Source: Escherichia coli
GTDB lineage: Bacteria; Pseudomonadota; Gammaproteobacteria; Enterobacterales; Enterobacteriaceae
DNA: 64,000 nucleotides
Direction: 5' to 3' (one strand)
NCBI RefSeq assembly: GCF_041248615.1
Contig: NZ_CP158426.1
Part shown: positions 12,413 through 57,840 of the stretch, piece by piece
Numbering within the stretch: the stretch's first letter is position 1
Layout of the letters: the number at the start of each line of letters is the position of its first letter
The notes under the pieces: model-generated
Database searches by the model: none
Told to the model about the DNA's origin: nothing
The model's input: only the letters and a program-made list of their open reading frames with translations
Position numbers and translations under genes: made by a program

Positions 12413-13357
12413 ATGACTATGTCCCTGCATACCAAGATAAGTGCCCCTAACACGACAGCGGCGACCAGCGTATCCTCGCTGGATCTGTCAGGCTCCTCAA
12501 AAACGAAATGTTCAACAGCCAGAACCGATATTTATCAGACTGTTACCGACAGCATAATTGCGGCGCTGGAAACCGGAGTAAAACCTTGGGTGTGTCCTTG
12601 GCAGCGAGCTCCCGGTATGTCCGGTTTACCGTCCAATTACGCCACTGGTAAGGCTTACAGCGGAATGAATATCATGTTGCTTTGGTGCAGCGCGTCAAAA
12701 CAGGGATTCTGTGATTCACGCTGGATGACCTACAAACAGGCAAAAGCGGTAGGTGGGCAGGTGCGCAAGGGAGAACACGGCACTACCGCGATTTTCTATA
12801 CCACGCTGGAAAAGGAAAATGATAACGGAGAAACTGACTATATTCCTATGCTGAAAGCATTCACTGTGTTTAATGTTGAACAAATTGACGGTTTACTCCT
12901 GAGTGATGATGCCGTTTTTCCGGCAGAGATCTTTGAGCCATTACCACGTGCAGAAGCACTTTTTCGTAGTAGCGGTGCAACCATTATTGAAAAAGGACAG
13001 AATGCTTTTTTTACACCATCAACCGACGAAATTCGCTTACCTGAACGGTATCTTTTTATTGATGCTGCTAATTTCTACGCAACCGGCCTGCATGAGCTCG
13101 TTCACTGGAGTGGGGCAAAAAGTCGGCTGAACCGTGAAATGAAAGGGAAATTTGGCAGCGAGGGGTATGCGTTTGAAGAGTTGATCGCTGAGCTGGGGAG
13201 CGCATTCCTGATGGCGGATCTGGGGATAGTTGGAGAAGTTCTGCATGACAGTTATATCGCTTCCTGGCTTAAAGCACTGAGGAATGATAAACGCTATATT
13301 TTCAAGGCCGCCAGCGCGGCATCGAAAGCACATCGCTATTTGATGGATAAAAGCTGA
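12413..13357 (+). CDS. ardC: ArdC-like antirestriction protein (ssDNA-binding N-domain plus zincin-like metallopeptidase C-domain)
   Basis: DIYQTVTDSIIAALETGVKPW N-terminal ArdC-type motif; HExxH motif GLHELVHWSG in C-terminal half; hairpin after stop. Confidence 0.75.
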   Translation: MTMSLHTKISAPNTTAATSVSSLDLSGSSKTKCSTARTDIYQTVTDSIIAALETGVKPWVCPWQRAPGMSGLPSNYATGKAYSGMNIMLLWCSASKQGFCDSRWMTYKQAKAVGGQVRKGEHGTTAIFYTTLEKENDNGETDYIPMLKAFTVFNVEQIDGLLLSDDAVFPAEIFEPLPRAEALFRSSGATIIEKGQNAFFTPSTDEIRLPERYLFIDAANFYATGLHELVHWSGAKSRLNREMKGKFGSEGYAFEELIAELGSAFLMADLGIVGEVLHDSYIASWLKALRNDKRYIFKAASAASKAHRYLMDKS

Positions 13358-18342: not shown

Positions 18343-18514
18343 TACGTATTCCTCGTTGATTGGTGTTAACTCTCTTTCTCGGGCCTGAATTCGCCTGTTA
18401 TATGGGCGACCAGGATAGCCTGATAGACTGGCCCCATGAATCTCCAGACAACCAATATCACTTAAATAAGTGATAGTCTTAATACTAGTTTTTAGACTAG
18501 TCATTGGAGAGCAG

Positions 18515-18880
18515 ATGATTGATGTCTTAGGACCGGAGAAACGCAGACGGCGTACTACACAGGAAAAGATCGCTATTGTTCAGCAGAGTTTTGAACCGGG
18601 AATGAAGGTCTCCCTTGTTGCCCGGCAACACGGTGTGGCAGCCAGCCAGTTATTTCTCTGGCGCAAGCAATACCAGGAGGGAAGTCTTACTGCTGTGGCC
18701 GCAGGAGAGCAGGTCGTTCCTGCCTCTGAACTTGCTGCTGCCATGAAGCAGATTAAAGAACTCCAGCGCCTGCTCGGCAAAAAAACGATGGAAAATGAAC
18801 TCCTTAAAGAAGCCGTTGAATACGGGCGTGCAAAAAAGTGGATAGCGCACGCGCCCTTATTGCCCGGGGATGGGGAGTAA
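18515..18880 (+). CDS. insC: IS2 transposase OrfA (InsC)
   Basis: [29 protein letters not shown]... matches recalled IS2 InsC; ATG at 18515 inside track ORF 18470..18880. Confidence 0.9.
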
Positions 18881-19743
18881 GCTTAGTCAGCCGTTGTCTC
18901 CGGGTGTCGCGTGCGCAGTTGCACGTAATTCTCAGACGAACCGATGACTGGAAAGATGGTCGCCGCAGCCGTCACTCAGATGATACGGATGTGCTTCTCC
19001 GTATACACCATGTTATCGGAGAGCTGCCCACGTATGGTTATCGTCGGGTATGGGCGCTGCTTCGCAGACAGGCCGAACTTGATGGTACGCCTGCGATCAA
19101 TGCCAAACGTGTTTACCGGATCATGCGCCAGAATGCGCTGTTGCTTGAGCGAAAAACCGCTGTACCGCCATCGAAACGGGCACATACTGGCAAAGTGGCC
19201 GTGAAAGAAAGCAATCAACGATGGTGCTCTGACGGGTTCGAGTTCCGCTGTGATAACGGAGAAAAACTGCGAGTCACGTTCGCGCTGGACTGCTGTGACC
19301 GTGAGGCACTGCACTGGGCAGTCACTACGGGCGGCTTCGACAGTGAAACAGTACAGGACGTCATGCTGGGAGCGGTGGAACGCCGCTTCGGCAACGAGCT
19401 TCCGGCGTCTCCAGTAGAGTGGCTGACGGATAATGGTTCATGCTACCGGGCTAATGAAACACGGCAGTTTGCCCGGATATTGGGGCTTGAACCGAAGAAC
19501 ACGGCGGTGCGGAGTCCGGAGAGTAACGGCATAGCAGAGAGCTTCGTGAAAACGATAAAGCGTGACTACATCAGTATCATGCCTAAACCAGACGGGTTAA
19601 CGGCAGCAAAGAACCTTGCAGAGGCGTTCGAGCATTATAACGAATGGCATCCGCATAGTGCACTGGGTTATCGCTCGCCACGGGAATATCTGCGGCAGCA
19701 GGCCAGTAATGGGTTAAGTGATAACAGGTGTCTGGAAATATAG
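18838..19743 (+). CDS. insD: IS2 transposase OrfB (InsD), DDE integrase domain
   Basis: Overlaps insC 3' end in a different frame as expected for IS3-family frameshifting; sequence matches recalled IS2 OrfB. Confidence 0.9.
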
Positions 19744-20342: not shown

Positions 20343-21098
20343 TTAAATTTGCATTGAGGTAGCGATATCGAGACGTTGCAGTTCGTCAATCGTGTAGATG
20401 CGGAACACATTCCTGTGGCGGGTTTCCAGTGGGATGTGTTGATGATTCACGATGACGTACTGGATGCTGTCAAACAGCCGTTCAAGACCGAGTTTTTTTT
20501 GCGGGTCTGGCACAATATAAAAAACGTAGATCCAGTCTTTACGCGTTCGGGCCAGTAAATGACTGGCTATGATCGACTGGTAACGGGCTTTGGTTTTCAG
20601 ATGGCGCTCGGTCTCGATGGCGATCACCGTGCCGCTGGGGAGGGCAATTAGCCCGTCCGGGCGGTGACTGACCTGATAACGACTCAGGAAAGTTGTGCGA
20701 TCGCCATGTATCCAGCCGCATGCGCCTTTTTTTTCGAGGATGATCCGCGCCATCTGATTATCAAGGTGATGTTCCAGCGTCCAGCCTGTGAGTTTTGAAG
20801 GCTCAAACCGGGCCGGGAAAATTTCATCATCAGGCTGTATTACGACCGCCAGCCCGTCGTTGGTTATTCCCCACAATGAAATTTTCTTCGTACGTGATAC
20901 CAGGACGTGTTTTTGTATTAACCCCATTCCCTCAACTTTTGAAAGCAGGGAATACAGTGATTTATGATCCCTGAAGCCGAACAGCAGCATCAGTGTTGTA
21001 AAATCACTGTACGTTTCTTCTTTCAGGAAATTCAGCAGTCGTATTATCTTCTCGCGATGTCGGGTCTGGCGCTCGCGGTATGCGGTGATAAGCATCAT
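20343..21098 (-). CDS. Hypothetical mobilization protein, possible MobC-like small relaxase
   Basis: 251-aa ORF 8 nt downstream of coupling-protein gene; function inferred from position only. Confidence 0.35.
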   Translation of the reverse strand: MMLITAYRERQTRHREKIIRLLNFLKEETYSDFTTLMLLFGFRDHKSLYSLLSKVEGMGLIQKHVLVSRTKKISLWGITNDGLAVVIQPDDEIFPARFEPSKLTGWTLEHHLDNQMARIILEKKGACGWIHGDRTTFLSRYQVSHRPDGLIALPSGTVIAIETERHLKTKARYQSIIASHLLARTRKDWIYVFYIVPDPQKKLGLERLFDSIQYVIVNHQHIPLETRHRNVFRIYTIDELQRLDIATSMQI

Positions 21099-21106
21099 TT
21101 CCCCTT

Positions 21107-23032
21107 CTAAAAGTTCAGTAACGAGGGATGATCCTCTTTACCTGCACCTGCACCTGCACCTGCACCTGCACTTGTTGTTGTGTGTTTCTCGTCCGGCTTG
21201 TCAAAAAAGAGATCGGGTTGTGTTGTCGTGATAACTGATGTTGATGACGGTCCGGATGACATTTCTTCCTCGTCAAAATTCAGGGCAATGTTGACTCTTG
21301 CGGCGGTGGCGGCAACAGCGGGCGATACGGCACAGATCGCCAGTTCCCTTTTTTTAACCCTGATGGGAGAAATTAGTGAAGCAGAGGGGAGGGCTTTGGT
21401 GGTGAATATAAAACTGACAAAATCAGGCAGGTTCAGCACCATATTACTGTCGATAAAGAAACGCTCGGCCTGCCTGATGGTGCGTTCACTATCGATAGTC
21501 TCTGTCAGCACCGCATCTGTTTTGGCTTTGCGGACTTCGTCATCGACTAATATGGTGCCTGACATTCTTGCCACCCAGTCAGCGGTATCAGGGTCCATGA
21601 CACGATAAACCAGCTTGAATTTGGCATTCTCCACAACTGCACCCACCACGGCATCGCTTTTCAAATCCGCCGGGCAATCTTTTAAATCGGCAATGGATTG
21701 GTGGTCCATAATAATGTGTACACCTTTATCCCGTGCCGCACCTAAGCCTTCCAGCGCAGGCTTGGATAAATGGTATTTCAGTTCGGAAAGGTAAATAGCA
21801 ATAGGGCGGGGTGTGTGGTTTACCCGATCGCGCCTTTCTGCCAGCTGGTACAGGCGAACCAGCAGCATGCGCTGAGCGGTAATAATTTTGCTGTTGCGCA
21901 TCGAGCCAATCACATAGCAGCAACCACCGTTATCAAATATTGTATTGAGGGAAAATCCTGCCGGTGCATTGATGGCATTGAGTAAGGCCAGCTCCTCAAT
22001 TTTCCCGAAAAAGGCTTTTATCTTATCAGCGATACTTTGGACGTATTCCCCGTTATACACATCCCGAATGGTTGAGGTCGTATTACGGGCGACAAATTGT
22101 GCAGCTATTCGGGCTGCTTTGCGATCGTCAATGCGATAAAAGTCAGACTCTTGTCCTTTCTCTGCCAGACTGAAACCCGCGACAAAAAGTTCTTCCAGTT
22201 CATCAGCGGTGATATCGTTAATCAGGTTTAGCTGGTATGCCTGTTTCCTCAGGTCAATTAGGGCAAAGGATTTCCCTGCATCCTCGCAGGCTTTCCGGTA
22301 AAGGTGTGGGGCCCACTCATCATCTTTGGGGTCCATAACAAATACGCCTTCACCGGCCAAAATACTCTGATAAAGTAATATCCCGGTGGCCACCCCTTTA
22401 CCGGCCCCCGTGGTCCCGATGATATCGGCATGTTGTTTTTGCCAGTCTTTTAACGGCAGGTACATCGGCTGTTTCATTCTGTTCATGCCGATAAAAATAC
22501 CTTTACTCAGGTTAATATAATCCTCCGGGTTATAGTGCAATGTTTCCGGTAGCAGCGATTTCACCGTTCGGACATCAGTACGTAATTCCCTTTCCAGAGT
22601 GGTTTTTCTGACGAACCGACTTTTTACTTTATCGAGTTCAGGTGTTAACACCCTGCGCAGAAGAATATGGAAAACAAAACCGGCTGCGGTAGAGGTAATC
22701 AGTATCAGCCAGGAGAGGACAGTATTGCTGGTGGCTATCTTTATTCGGTATATCCATTGAAATAATTCGTTCACCACGGGCGCTATTGTGCCAAACAAAA
22801 AGCACAGTATGGAAAAAACTATCACCAGCTTTTTCCATAAAGGGGCTTTGAGTCGTTCATCGCTTTTCATCGACGCGAAGAATGGCATGGTCAGCCCTGA
22901 GAATAGCGCCAAAATAGGTTGATGCTGGTGCATAAAAACGAGCAGTCCCAGCATGCCGTCCACTATCGGTGATAGTGAAACGATCAGCTTATTTAACACC
23001 ATAATGCTTCCTTTATCGGCCATTCGCCCCAC
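21107..23032 (-). CDS. Type IV coupling protein (VirD4/TraD/MobB-like)
   Basis: N-terminal TM helices; Walker A GTTGAGKGVATG; 641 aa; C-terminal Gly-Ala repeat. Confidence 0.85.
   Translation of the reverse strand: MGRMADKGSIMVLNKLIVSLSPIVDGMLGLLVFMHQHQPILALFSGLTMPFFASMKSDERLKAPLWKKLVIVFSILCFLFGTIAPVVNELFQWIYRIKIATSNTVLSWLILITSTAAGFVFHILLRRVLTPELDKVKSRFVRKTTLERELRTDVRTVKSLLPETLHYNPEDYINLSKGIFIGMNRMKQPMYLPLKDWQKQHADIIGTTGAGKGVATGILLYQSILAGEGVFVMDPKDDEWAPHLYRKACEDAGKSFALIDLRKQAYQLNLINDITADELEELFVAGFSLAEKGQESDFYRIDDRKAARIAAQFVARNTTSTIRDVYNGEYVQSIADKIKAFFGKIEELALLNAINAPAGFSLNTIFDNGGCCYVIGSMRNSKIITAQRMLLVRLYQLAERRDRVNHTPRPIAIYLSELKYHLSKPALEGLGAARDKGVHIIMDHQSIADLKDCPADLKSDAVVGAVVENAKFKLVYRVMDPDTADWVARMSGTILVDDEVRKAKTDAVLTETIDSERTIRQAERFFIDSNMVLNLPDFVSFIFTTKALPSASLISPIRVKKRELAICAVSPAVAATAARVNIALNFDEEEMSSGPSSTSVITTTQPDLFFDKPDEKHTTTSAGAGAGAGAGKEDHPSLLNF
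21137..21166. repeat. Hexanucleotide tandem repeat (CACCTG)x5 within coupling protein C-terminus
   Basis: Read directly; encodes (Ala-Gly)n on the minus strand; in-frame repeat. Confidence 0.85.
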
Positions 23033-23270
23033 GACATCGCCCCCTCAATTCGCCCCACGGTGTTGGGCGAAAAGCTGGGGTGAAAGCAGGGGCAAACAGA
23101 GGTGGCTGCGGTGCAGCCATGTGCCGGTAGATAGACTTTCCGGCCCGAAACGACGTGCACCAGTTCATGCGGGCTGGACGCCCTTATTGCCTGGCGCATG
23201 GGGGTAATGGCGTGGCTGTACGCCGCGCCAAAACCCCCAGGGTCAACGGCGGCACACCGTCGCCCGCTAC

Positions 23271-23633
23271 GCGCGACCAACCCCTTTAAGACGCGCGTTT
23301 CGCCTGTTTTTTTCTCGCAAGCTCCAAAAAACGGGAACGCTGCTTTAAAGGGGTTGGTCGCGCCTGATTGGTAATATCCCCGCTGGGGCGGGAAATATTA
23401 CCTGGCTTGACGGTGTGCGGGGCAAGCCCCCCACAAAAAACGGCACGTGGGCGTGCCTTTTTGCTCGCTGGGGCGGCAAAATTTTTGCGGCTCCCCCGGC
23501 CTGCTTAATTCGCTGTGGGCGAATGTGCGCAGATGGATGCGGTACCTGAAAATTAACAATTTCTGCGAAATTGAATTTTCTGTCCGCGTTCCACTGGCTT
23601 ATTTCACGGCTTAACAATTTCTCCGAAATTGAA
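23271..23633. other. Candidate oriT / relaxosome assembly region with inverted and direct repeats
   Basis: 20-bp near-perfect inverted repeat (23271-23290 vs 23344-23363); two copies of TTAACAATTTCNCGAAATTGAA (23553-23575, 23611-23633), each containing dyad CAATTTC-N3-GAAATTG; lies between coupling protein gene and T4SS genes. Confidence 0.5.
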
Positions 23634-23709
23634 GCCAGAAATTAGCCAGCCTCAACCCCGCCGTCTGTCAGTCTGTGGCGCTGTGAGGCATAGTGTAATG
23701 TCCGGTGGT

Positions 23710-24015
23710 TCACACCTGTTCGCGATATATTTCAGCCCGGCATTCCTGTTCAGCCTTTAATACCTCCCGGTAGGTTTCATCATCGACTTTCGTTCCCTGA
23801 TTTTCGGCGTATCGTCTGAGTTTGTCAGCATCCTGTTCATTAAGACGCGAAAGATGATGTCGCAATAAACTGATCAGTCTACTTTCATAGATCTCATAGT
23901 AAAGGCCGCATCCCTGATTCGCTTCCTCAGAGAACTTTCTGTACACGGCTCCGACCGATATTCTGTCATGATGCATTGAGTGGATGTTGGAAATAAAAAG
24001 GTTTTCTTTATCCAT
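23710..24015 (-). CDS. Hypothetical protein, 101 aa
   Basis: ORF only; charged and helical in character. Confidence 0.45.
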   Translation of the reverse strand: MDKENLFISNIHSMHHDRISVGAVYRKFSEEANQGCGLYYEIYESRLISLLRHHLSRLNEQDADKLRRYAENQGTKVDDETYREVLKAEQECRAEIYREQV

Positions 24016-48422: not shown

Positions 48423-49694
48423 CTAGCCAGCTTGAAGCGTCGTTTTTCCTCTCCCCAGTATGTAGGGCGGTACATAGGATTTGCGGCAAGTATCCAGATA
48501 ATCCGACCACCACTGCATCATTGCCTTTCTTGCTTCCAGATGCTCTGCTCTGTGAATATATGCCTGGCGTACGGAGTTACGTTCCTGGTGGCTCATTTGC
48601 CGTTCAACAGCATCCTGTGACCATATACTGGATTCCATAAGGGCACTGCATGCCATTGTCCTGAAACCGTGACCACAGATTTCCATTTTCGTATCCCAGC
48701 CCATCAGGCGTAGCGCCTTGTTCACCGTATTTTCACACATGGGTTTATACGGATTATGGTCCCCGGGGAACACGAGTGCATTATCTCCTGAGATATCCTT
48801 AATCTTTTTCAAGATCGCGATCGACTGTTGTGAGAGGGGTACGATATGAGGCCTGCGCATTTTGGCACCACGACCAGAGTAACGCACGCCTTCAATAGCT
48901 TCGCGCGTGGCGGGTATTGTCCAGACCTGGTTTCCGAAATCAATTTCATGCCAGCGGGCAAAACGCAATTCACTCGAGCGAATGAACAGATGCAGTGTTA
49001 GCAGGATGGCAAGGCGAGTGAGTTCACGGCACTGCTGAAAACTCTCAATGCTCTCAAGCAGTTCTGGAAGACGCTCCAGTGGTAGAGCGGGGTAGTGTCG
49101 TTTTACTGGTGGAGCCGTCACTCCGTCAAGGTTTGCTGCCGGATTAAAATCGATTAATCCATGATGCACGGCGTAGCGCATGATATTCCGGAGGTGCTGG
49201 CGTGTACGGGATGCAACTTCCAGGAGACCCTTTTCCTCAATTCCTTTTAATAAAGTGATGAAATGGCGGGGTTTCAGTTCTGAAACTGACATGGTGCCAA
49301 TGACTGGGAAGATATGATTATTCATGCTGGCGAGCAAACGGTCGGCGGTGTTCTCTGACCATTTTTTATTGCTCTTGTGCCATGCAAGTGCAACGTTTCT
49401 AAACACTTTCTTTGGCATGCGAGAACTGCGTTCGGCTGCTCGCTGCTCTGCTGGATTGATGTTCAGTACCAGCATTTTGCGAATACCTTCACGTTGACTA
49501 CGGGCGTCTGAGAGGGAGATGACTGGGTAGGCACCGAGTGCAATACGTGATTCTTTACCCTTAATACGGTACTTGAGATACCAGTGACGTGAACCGCCAG
49601 GTTTGACCAAGAGATACAGACCGTGGGAATCGGAAACTTTAAAGGGTTTATCAGATGGTTTGAGACTGCGGATTTTGGTGTCGGTAAGAGACAT
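48423..49694 (-). CDS. int: P4-type tyrosine integrase (tRNA-adjacent)
   Basis: 423 aa; N-terminal arm-binding-like region, C-terminal catalytic domain; 161 nt from tRNA-Asn 3' end. Confidence 0.9.
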   Translation of the reverse strand: MSLTDTKIRSLKPSDKPFKVSDSHGLYLLVKPGGSRHWYLKYRIKGKESRIALGAYPVISLSDARSQREGIRKMLVLNINPAEQRAAERSSRMPKKVFRNVALAWHKSNKKWSENTADRLLASMNNHIFPVIGTMSVSELKPRHFITLLKGIEEKGLLEVASRTRQHLRNIMRYAVHHGLIDFNPAANLDGVTAPPVKRHYPALPLERLPELLESIESFQQCRELTRLAILLTLHLFIRSSELRFARWHEIDFGNQVWTIPATREAIEGVRYSGRGAKMRRPHIVPLSQQSIAILKKIKDISGDNALVFPGDHNPYKPMCENTVNKALRLMGWDTKMEICGHGFRTMACSALMESSIWSQDAVERQMSHQERNSVRQAYIHRAEHLEARKAMMQWWSDYLDTCRKSYVPPYILGRGKTTLQAG

Positions 49695-49855: not shown

Positions 49856-49931
49856 TGGCTCCTCTGACTGGACTCGAACCAGTGACATACGGATTAACAG
49901 TCCGCCGTTCTACCGACTGAACTACAGAGGA
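49856..49931 (-). tRNA. asnT: tRNA-Asn (anticodon GUU)
   Basis: Reverse complement reads TCCTCTGTAGTTCAGTCGGTAGAACGGCGGACTGTTAATCCGTATGTCACTGGTTCGAGTCCAGTCAGAGGAGCCA; matches recalled E. coli tRNA-Asn; next to mtfA as at the E. coli asnT locus. Confidence 0.95.
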
Positions 49932-57431: not shown

Positions 57432-57840
57432 ACACATCCGCATGGCGATGAATGCCTGGGCGCATCCGGACGGTGAAAAAGTTCCGGCAGCTGAAATAAC
57501 CAGGGCTTATTTTGAACTGGGTATGACGTTCCCAGAACTGTATGACGACAGCCATCCGGAAGCCCTGGCTCGCAATACCCAGAAAATTTTCCGCTGGGTA
57601 GAGAAAGACACCCCTGATGCAGTTGAAAAAATTCAGGCGTTGTTACCAGCGATCGAAAAGGCAATGCCACCTTTGCTGGTGGCCAGAATGCGCAGCCACA
57701 GTTCAGCTTATTTTCGGGAACTGGTGGAGACGCGGGAGCGACTGGTGAGAGACGCTGATGATTTTGTCGCAGTGGCAATCGCCGGTTTCAATCAGATGAA
57801 CCGTGGTGGCCCGGCAGGAAATGCTGTGGCAGTACATTGA
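57415..57840 (+). CDS. YdaT-family prophage protein
   Basis: N-terminus MKIKHEHI resembles recalled YdaT; 141 aa. Confidence 0.6.
   Translation: MKIKHEHIRMAMNAWAHPDGEKVPAAEITRAYFELGMTFPELYDDSHPEALARNTQKIFRWVEKDTPDAVEKIQALLPAIEKAMPPLLVARMRSHSSAYFRELVETRERLVRDADDFVAVAIAGFNQMNRGGPAGNAVAVH

Follow-up and report, generated by a model that had tools for sequence, protein, structure and literature searches.

Genetic context of the intergenic region

The window (the whole 64-kb stretch of DNA that we analysed) includes an ICE that resides in the Escherichia coli chromosome at a tRNA-Asn gene. Within this element, a gap of 0.7 kb that is annotated as non-coding separates the last gene of the virB operon from the genes mobB and mobC (Table 1). 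To the right of the gap lie orf101, TrbM-like and Cag12-like genes, and then virB11 through virB1, all of which are encoded on the minus strand. We consider the element to be a relative of ICEEc1/ICEKp1 that lacks the yersiniabactin genes, because none of the ORFs in the 64-kb window is large enough to encode a yersiniabactin synthetase. The 17-bp att repeat of the ICE was sought in the same 64 kb, and no second copy was present. In sequence, the window is identical to part of the E. coli NRZ14408 chromosome.

The start of mobB is annotated as the ATG at position 23002, and the longest ORF begins with a GTG at 23032. The product of mobC matches the NCBIfam model NF041423, ‘MobC family replication-relaxation protein’, with a score of 362.8 bits (cut-off, 200). 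Its family assignment rests on NCBIfam, since searches of Pfam and of PDB sequences gave no match. The protein also carries the residues PD...IETERHLK, which resemble a PD-(D/E)XK nuclease motif.

The initial annotation of this locus proposed that positions 23271-23633 constitute an origin of transfer (oriT), whose repeats were described as occupying non-coding DNA between the coupling-protein gene and the T4SS operon. This placement is accurate, given that the stop codon of orf101 is found on one side of the repeats and mobB on the other.

Table 1. Positions of the genes and of the observed and predicted DNA features at the candidate transfer origin. Offsets are relative to the motif used for the comparative scan.
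Feature	Position in window	Strand	Remarks
mobC	20343-21098	-	MOB_C family relaxase (NCBIfam NF041423)
mobB	21107-23002	-	Type IV coupling protein; 29% identity to CloDF13 MobB, 82% to ICEKp MobB
Heptamer iterons	23024-23095		Proposed MobC binding site, just upstream of mobB; three direct and three inverted
TCGCCCC, direct orientation	23024, 23037, 23050
Inverted heptamers	23065 (GGGCGAA), 23077 (GGGGTGA), 23089 (GGGGCAA)
Conserved blocks left of inverted repeat	23101-23245		Fixed offsets in ~50 loci
Hairpin GTGGCTGC-GGT-GCAGCCAT	within 23101-23245		Between iterons and inverted repeat
Block GCGGGCTGGACGCCCTTA	23169		Offset -96
Block CATGGGGGTAATG	23197		Offset -68
Block GCCAAAACCCCCA	23227		Offset -38
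Large inverted repeat	23271-23363		Published as ‘IR2’; 19-nt perfect arms plus imperfect inner extension
Mirror nic motif GGGTTGGTCGCG	23272-23283	-	In the other arm
Nic motif GGGTTGGTCGCG	23351-23362	+	By alignment with the CloDF13 nick
Conserved blocks right of inverted repeat	23409-23497		GACGGTGTGCGGGGCAAGCCCC, hairpin, GCTCGCTGGGGCGGCAAAATTT, CGGCTCCCCC
Block GACGGTGTGCGGGGC			Offset +144
Bidirectional terminator-like hairpin GGCACGTGGGCGTGCC	23442-23457		T-runs on both strands
Block GCTCGCTGGGGCGGCAAAATTT			Offset +199
Block CGGCTCCCCC			Offset +224
Repeat copy 1, bulged palindrome	23548-23580		GAAAATT-AA-CAATTTC-TGC-GAAATTG-AATTTTC
Repeat copy 2, bulged palindrome	23608-23636		GGCTT-AA-CAATTTC-TCC-GAAATTG-AAGCC
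orf101	23710-24015	-	Small helical protein of 101 aa; final ORF of the virB operon
tRNA-Asn	49856-49931		P4-type integrase adjoining; one end of the ICE

A large inverted repeat carries a predicted nick site

The arms of the inverted repeat, 23271-23289 (GCGCGACCAACCCCTTTAA) and 23345-23363, are each 19 nt in length, 100% complementary and 55 nt apart. Its earlier description as a 20-bp repeat with arms separated by 53 bp is also apt, in that the 19 perfect pairs are followed by a G.T pair as the 20th. No longer perfect inverted repeat with a loop of at most 100 nt exists anywhere in the 64-kb window, and none of 100 dinucleotide shuffles contained one of 19 nt (the longest had 14 nt). When treated as single-stranded DNA, positions 23271-23363 are predicted to fold into one long hairpin with a free energy of -35.4 kcal/mol (z = -6.4). 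A literature search with the arm sequence gave no match.

The nick site of CloDF13 was mapped to 5'-GGGTG/GTCGGG-3' by Nunez & de la Cruz 2001, as quoted in PMC5935869. In the sequence record of CloDF13, the nick belongs to an inverted repeat (GACCACCCGCAAAA ... TTTTTGTGGGTGGTCGGG) approximately 300-350 bp upstream of mobB and falls in the arm that is distal to mobB. The arm TTTTTGTGGGTGGTCGGGCG of CloDF13 can be aligned with TTTAAAGGGGTTGGTCGCGCC of the window, and it aligns better still with TTTTTAGGGGGTGGTCGCGCC of the group of plasmids with ~72% identity described below. An arm of the inverted repeat in the window therefore carries a sequence that is similar to the mapped CloDF13 nick, and by homology we predict that the plus strand is cut at 23356/23357. 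The same motif is present in mirror image in the other arm, where a second nick, on the minus strand between 23278 and 23277, is possible. Two nic sites that are located inside the inverted repeat IR2 have been described previously (PMC2262945; supplement of PMC4891358).

Comparative analysis reveals covariation and a larger conserved core

A scan with the motif CGCTACGCGNGACCAMCCCC against one genome per species yielded 59 loci. Approximately 50 of these are real and come almost exclusively from Enterobacterales, and the remainder are chance matches or are cut by contig ends. In the real loci, the partner arm is located 55-80 nt away. A mobB homologue (41-97% identity) starts 232-400 bp to the left of the motif in approximately 35 loci. 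Roughly a dozen others have neither mobB nor mobC despite several kilobases of available flank, and these are orphan origins of a kind known from the literature. Orphan origins were observed in Pectobacterium, Dickeya, Brenneria and other genera, and also on one plasmid of 2.4 kb.

Among 26 distinct sequences of the inverted repeat, standard pairs occupy 97.2% of the cells in the 19 pairs, a proportion that is to be read with the selection of loci in mind: they were picked by a left-arm pattern and then by at most two mismatches in a 14-nt core, and this choice favours paired arms, although the filter still passes a single uncompensated change. Six pairs have changed on both sides. The pair 23280/23354 is A-T in one half of the sequences and C-G in the other (13:13) with no exception, and 23274/23360 is represented by C-G, A-T and T-A. 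Changes from T-A to A-T affect both 23286/23348 and 23287/23347, a change from A-T to G-C affects 23288/23346, and 23289/23345 has changed from A-T to C-G in one sequence. None of 500 shuffles reached these covariation values, and slid controls pair in 33-50% of cells. This covariation shows that the inverted repeat has been kept able to pair.

Additional sequence blocks occur at nearly fixed distances from the motif in the ~50 loci (Table 1), including origins with no mob genes nearby. The conserved core corresponds to approximately 23024-23497 in the window, and this core is retained in the orphan copies. Consequently, the box 23271-23633 that had been drawn previously does cover part of the origin, but its left limit does not hold, because the origin extends ~250 bp further to the left (23024-23245).

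The region is a probable transfer origin of a known type

We judge it very probable that the region from approximately 23024 to 23640 is an oriT of the CloDF13/ICEEc1/ICEKp1 type that is served by the adjoining MobC and MobB proteins. The proposal that this locus functions as a transfer origin is supported by its homology to a published oriT segment, by its CloDF13-like nick motif, and by its mobB-mobC/virB context. Origins of this type are already known from studies of the CloDF13 nick (2001), ICEEc1 (2004) and ICEKp1 (2008).

The intergenic gap exhibits 86-88% identity over 95% of its length (~650 bp) to ICEKp-type elements of E. coli and Klebsiella pneumoniae, and ICEKp-type homologues of the gap are present in 179 complete E. 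coli genomes. The exact variant (at least 98% identity) is found in only five of 5426 such genomes. Small conjugative plasmids similar to pMET1 and pCRY share ~87% identity over 78% of the gap, such that the alignments with the ICEKp-type and pMET1/pCRY-type segments span 530-650 bp. A group of MOB_C conjugative plasmids shares ~72% identity. In the latter group, topB is located next to the origin in all five plasmids whose flanks were examined, accompanied by hns in four of the five.

The DNA homology includes the published oriT region of ICEKp1/ICEEc1. A segment of ~250 bp near the virB and mobB genes of ICEKp1 was sufficient for plasmid mobilisation (Lin 2008, as summarised by Marcoleta et al.; PMC4891358), and pACYC184 was mobilised by the 1760-bp virB11-mobB interval of ICEKp1 (Farzand et al.; PMC6761156). 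The corresponding regions of pMET1 and HPI-ECOR31 are 90% identical, and pMET1 was reported to have the layout oriT-mobB-mobC, as do HPI-ECOR31 and CloDF13 (PMC2262945). The origin in the window is likewise positioned immediately upstream of mobB-mobC, a linkage that recurs in the approximately 35 other loci noted above. A family named ‘oriT_ICEKp1’ has been described in ICEs, in PTU-E50 plasmids and in islands with an origin alone (bioRxiv 10.64898/2026.01.13.699239). Locating the transfer origin of an ICEEc1/ICEKp1 relative that lacks ybt genes should aid both the annotation of such elements and the prediction of their mobility.

Heptamer iterons covary with the N-terminal domain of MobC

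DNA recognition by MOB_C relaxases is poorly understood. In the ~50 loci, heptamers that are specific to each family are found at -330 to -130 from the motif. Other families exhibit the same iteron layout as the window with other heptamers, namely CTCGCCTCA, TCGGTCAG, TCGGTGA, CGCCGCA or GCTCCCA. TCGCCC iterons are present in 14 loci, and the MobC N-terminal domain is of a single type in all of them. In pLH214 and pCAV1947-61 the origins are nearly identical and the MobB proteins share 96% identity, but the heptamers differ. Their MobC proteins are 86% identical overall, and the differences are confined almost entirely to residues 1-90.

On the basis of this covariation with the MobC N-terminal domain, the iterons probably serve as the relaxase binding site, with the qualification that the association largely follows phylogeny and includes only one sharp contrast, that between pLH214 and pCAV1947-61. 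Certain small plasmids carry two sets of iterons. If the iterons do determine specificity for the N-terminal domain of MobC, then such plasmids could hitch on two families of helper elements.

Two bulged palindromes as a proposed optional outer module

Two direct repeats of 23 bp had been reported in the region, each said to contain a dyad. We find them at 23553-23575 and 23611-23633, where they are alike at 22 of 23 positions, have starts that are 58 bp apart, and each include the dyad CAATTTC-nnn-GAAATTG. The exact dyad pattern occurs in the window only in these two repeats, and no pair of 23-mers with at most one mismatch within 100 nt arose in 30 shuffles. Both repeats are part of longer palindromes that are interrupted by a bulge (Table 1), with a folding z-score of -7.3.

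We compared 32 distinct copies from approximately 30 elements. The inner stem covaries (TTTC/GAAA, TTTT/AAAA, TTCC/GGAA and TTCA/TGAA), and the outer stems differ freely while remaining complementary (AAATT/AATTT, GGCTT/AAGCC, CGTT/AACG, TCGTT/AACGA, CGATT/AATCG, GGGGATT/AATCCCC and TGATT/AATCA). Both the 2-nt A-R bulge and the first base of the loop are invariant in the 32 copies. Of the cells in the stems, 92% are paired compared to 80% in shuffles, with none of 500 shuffles reaching 92%, and seven stem pairs have changed on both sides. The distance of the repeats from the motif is fixed (+295 and +353) regardless of which gene comes next; in the ICEs this gene is orf101, and most of the topB-linked plasmids have hns instead. 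A change in the N-terminal domain of MobC is not matched by a change in the repeats, which are missing from approximately half of the related origins, including those of ICEs of the Ec-isolate-12 type with intact mobB-mobC and most of the orphans. A scan of 22900-23800 with Rfam 15 gave only spurious hairpin matches (MIR3440, 24 bits versus a gathering score of 105). Resemblance to integron attC sites or to IHF sites was rejected by eye, as the box patterns do not fit.

We regard the 23-bp repeats as an optional outer module of the origin, and our best guess is that they have an accessory role, either as a structured site or as a site bound by protein. This view takes into account that the repeats are absent from about half of the origins and show no link to the N-terminal domain of MobC. 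Several more specific roles can be considered for this module.

It is possible, although somewhat doubtful, that the repeats are binding sites in duplex DNA for a small protein encoded by the element, which would tune transfer or the expression of mobB or virB and would not be required for nicking. The obvious candidate for such a protein is the product of orf101. In favour of this role, two copies of the inner dyad CAATTTC/GAAATTG are present at a distance of 58 bp, and the dyad shows strong conservation. Moreover, copy 2 adjoins orf101 in all 12 virB-type loci, and a further 12 related loci without orf101 also have no copy 2. Of the five topB-linked plasmids examined, four have the repeats together with an orf101 homologue (31-36% identity) located ~3 kb away. 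However, the co-occurrence of orf101 and copy 2 may reflect simple co-inheritance, because the two are physically adjacent, and two loci (L055 and L066) have an orf101 homologue and no repeats. Binding of the duplex by one protein also leaves unexplained why the outer stems of copies 1 and 2 differ and yet are complementary.

The orf101 product has no recognisable DNA-binding family or fold. Its residues 51-88 gave one weak match to the Arc repressor (E = 0.068), but there is no match to Pfam or NCBIfam, a PDB profile search was empty, and the AF2 model, which is a confident one (pLDDT 87), is helical at the position expected for the Arc-like strand and finds no Foldseek match in the PDB. A ribbon-helix-helix assignment for this protein was rejected, given that the match to Arc was not confirmed by Pfam, PDB profile, AF2 or Foldseek at E ≤0.001.

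A rather unlikely option is that the repeats act while single-stranded, by folding into hairpins on the leading 200-280 nt of the strand that is transferred; equally, they could form cruciforms in the donor. Such hairpins might signal priming or early expression in the recipient, or might protect or mark the leading end. The covariation of the stems, which extends to the unconserved outer stems, would be accounted for in this manner, as would the invariant bulge and first loop base, the favourable z-score, and the fixed distance from the nic motif, which is the same with orf101 or hns. If the orientation of CloDF13 holds, the repeats are also on the side that enters the recipient first. Arguing against this role, the palindromes point to neither strand, so the strand that matters cannot be distinguished, their stems are too short for a promoter of the Frpo type, and approximately half of the related origins, including most of those without nearby mob genes, manage without them.

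TraX, the prototype of the MOB_C relaxases, has its binding site in direct repeats that are some way from nic (PMC12857230), and the 23-bp repeats are likewise 190-280 bp from the predicted nick. That they are the MobC binding site is nevertheless improbable. Between pLH214 and pCAV1947-61 the N-terminal domains of MobC differ, whereas repeat copy 1 is identical and copy 2 nearly so, and we rejected MobC binding to the repeats on this comparison. What does vary with the N-terminal domain is the set of heptamer iterons on the opposite side of the inverted repeat, and many elements with intact mobB-mobC have no 23-bp repeats.

The chance that the inverted repeat and the 23-bp repeats are instead transcription signals (terminators or attenuators) between the virB operon and mobB, with the origin located elsewhere, is close to negligible: the region does lie between two operons on the same strand and includes the terminator-like hairpin with T-runs on both strands at 23442-23457, but no T-run follows the 19-bp or the 23-bp repeats, a terminator scan flagged 23442-23457 and 23103-23119 but neither type of repeat, the same module occurs without such adjoining genes on the 2.4-kb plasmid and in orphan chromosomal copies, the arms of the inverted repeat bear the CloDF13 nick motif, and the homologous fragment of ICEKp1 is a proven oriT. 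A promoter scan of the gap found no sigma-70-like promoter.

Returning to the notion of an optional outer module, we tentatively suggest a composite arrangement wherein the 23-bp repeats operate in cis as bulged hairpins selected for base pairing, at the level of DNA structure and not as ordinary direct repeats bound by protein, perhaps together with the orf101 product, and the iterons are the specificity site for MobC. This arrangement is an unlikely one to be correct in all of its parts. Specialists in MOB_C relaxases may find computational leads in the tracking of iterons with the N-terminal domain, in the bulged hairpins, and in the copies of the origin that are orphans or carry two iteron sets.

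A proposed mechanism for the origin

With these uncertainties in mind, the features described above can be arranged into a proposed order of events. The N-terminal domain of MobC would bind the TCGCCCC iterons at 23024-23095, as suggested by covariation. MobC and MobB would then nick the 93-bp inverted repeat in its right arm, at the sequence TTG/GTCGCG (23356/23357, plus strand), as predicted by homology, and the mirror-image site in the left arm could permit nicking of the other strand. If the orientation is that of CloDF13, the plus strand would depart 5' end first in the direction of the virB genes, and therefore mobB and mobC would be the last to enter the recipient. Pairing of the inverted repeat presumably serves recognition or termination. 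The 23-bp repeats, 190-280 nt beyond the predicted nick, could form cruciforms on the duplex or could fold on the leading single strand.

Comparison with known systems

The closest counterparts of the origin in the window are the oriT regions of ICEKp1 (Lin et al. 2008) and ICEEc1/HPI-ECOR31 (Schubert et al. 2004), which occupy the same position, from the end of the virB operon to mobB-mobC. They likewise have a 19-bp inverted repeat, each arm of which bears a nic motif, as well as TCGCCCC iterons and two 23-bp repeats that are followed by orf101. The host ICE described herein differs in that it has no genes of the size required for yersiniabactin synthesis and carries other cargo.

CloDF13 shares the gene order oriT-mobB-mobC, an inverted repeat whose arms are ~50 nt apart, and a MobC protein that belongs to the same NCBIfam family as that of the window. 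Its nick sequence is GGGTG/GTCGGG, compared to the predicted GGGTTG/GTCGCG in the window, and outside the arms the DNA of the two origins cannot be aligned. Reading of the CloDF13 sequence revealed neither 23-bp repeats nor TCGCCCC iterons. Furthermore, CloDF13 is a small mobilisable plasmid that has no secretion system of its own.

A more distant comparison can be made with oriT2 and TraX of the Enterococcus plasmid pAD1, the MOB_C prototype, whose relaxase is of the same class and is related to restriction endonucleases. There is no sequence similarity between pAD1 and the window. Francia and Clewell reportedly found in 2002 that the pAD1 nick is carried by a large inverted repeat. The N-terminal winged helix of TraX binds direct repeats located 70-120 bp from nic (PMC12857230), whereas the iterons of the window are ~260-330 bp away, are arranged as a 3+3 palindrome, and are a binding site that we infer. 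By analogy, the tracking of these iterons with the N-terminal domain of MobC would parallel recognition by TraX.

Finally, the ‘iOriT’ islands such as GIE492 (Marcoleta 2016; bioRxiv 10.64898/2026.01.13.699239) carry origins of the oriT_ICEKp1 family and have no mob genes. The copy in the window, in contrast, is not an orphan, as it is accompanied by a full set of mobB-mobC and virB genes.

Iterons and a hairpin in the transfer origin

The region immediately before mobB, the gene for the coupling protein, carries a set of TCGCCCC heptamers (see table) whose layout is kept in related elements even though the heptamer itself is swapped for other sequences. Across these elements, the heptamer type tracks the N-terminal ~90 residues of the MobC relaxase. 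The relaxase probably binds at these iterons, which may also serve as an autoregulatory operator for mobB. The longest mobB ORF begins at a GTG codon at position 23032 (21107-23032, minus strand), and if this longer form is used then the coding region overlaps the first iteron. RefSeq places the start at the ATG at 23002, which is preceded by AAGGAAG.

A hairpin located within the conserved core of the origin resembles a bidirectional terminator, as judged from its sequence. Its stem exhibits compensatory changes in relatives (GACGCG/CGCGTC and GCTGTCG/CGACAGC).

Features of the transfer origin, the ICE and a related small plasmid
Feature	Coordinates	Remarks
TCGCCCC heptamers	23024-23095	3 direct and 3 inverted copies; directly upstream of mobB
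Hairpin GGCACG-TGGG-CGTGCC	23442-23457	T-runs on both strands
orf101	23710-24015	101-aa helical protein; minus strand
IS3-family element	18470-19743	immediately downstream of mobC
ArdC gene	12413-13357	on the ICE
ICE integrase	48423-49694	
tRNA-Asn	49856-49931	ICE insertion site
Small-plasmid origin copy	1434-1800 of L007	Enterobacter ludwigii 2.4-kb plasmid NZ_CP099313.1

Origins without neighbouring mob genes

A copy of the origin is also present on the small Enterobacter ludwigii plasmid, which lacks mob genes. The nic-bearing inverted repeat is present there, with a change in one arm compensated in the other, and the 23-bp repeats are absent from this plasmid. Two tandem iteron palindromes of differing type are found, wherein one (TCGCCC[CT]) is the same as that of the window and the other (TCGCC[TG]CA) is the same as that of pLH214/pRHBSTW-type plasmids. 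Helpers from two families may be able to mobilise this plasmid.

Complete origin modules, comprising the blocks, the inverted repeat and often iterons, were identified at nine further loci (L014, L024, L026, L032, L042, L043, L047, L056 and L060), and neither mobB nor mobC was found within 2-6 kb of these origins. The hosts include Dickeya, Pectobacterium, Brenneria and Erwinia, among others, and in several genomes the origin is present in two or three copies.

orf101, the ICE and its cargo

The orf101 protein has an invariant GCGLYYEIY motif and no relative in Pfam, NCBIfam or PDB; Foldseek likewise gave no match, although the structural model is confident. Many records name this family 'dpoa decarboxylase', which looks like a propagated misannotation.

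Cargo of the ICE (which lies within 1-49931) includes a porin-like gene, an MFS efflux pump, a UbiD-like decarboxylase with a LysR regulator, a GH16 glycosylhydrolase and hchA, and an integrase pseudogene is also present. Yersiniabactin-sized genes are absent from the ICE. The 17-bp att repeat occurs as a single copy within the window. Outside the ICE, an ORF (57837-59000) contains four tandem copies (97% matches) of the unit ACAGATAAAGAT at 58347-58394.

Distribution of the origin variant

Of 5426 complete E. coli genomes, just 5 have the origin variant (23033-23709) at an identity of at least 98%. Citrobacter gillenii (L037) has the nearest MobB (97%) and MobC (96%) proteins found. The ICEKp/ICEEc1 variant of the origin, which is ~86.5% identical to 23033-23709, is carried by ~179 of these complete E. 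coli genomes.
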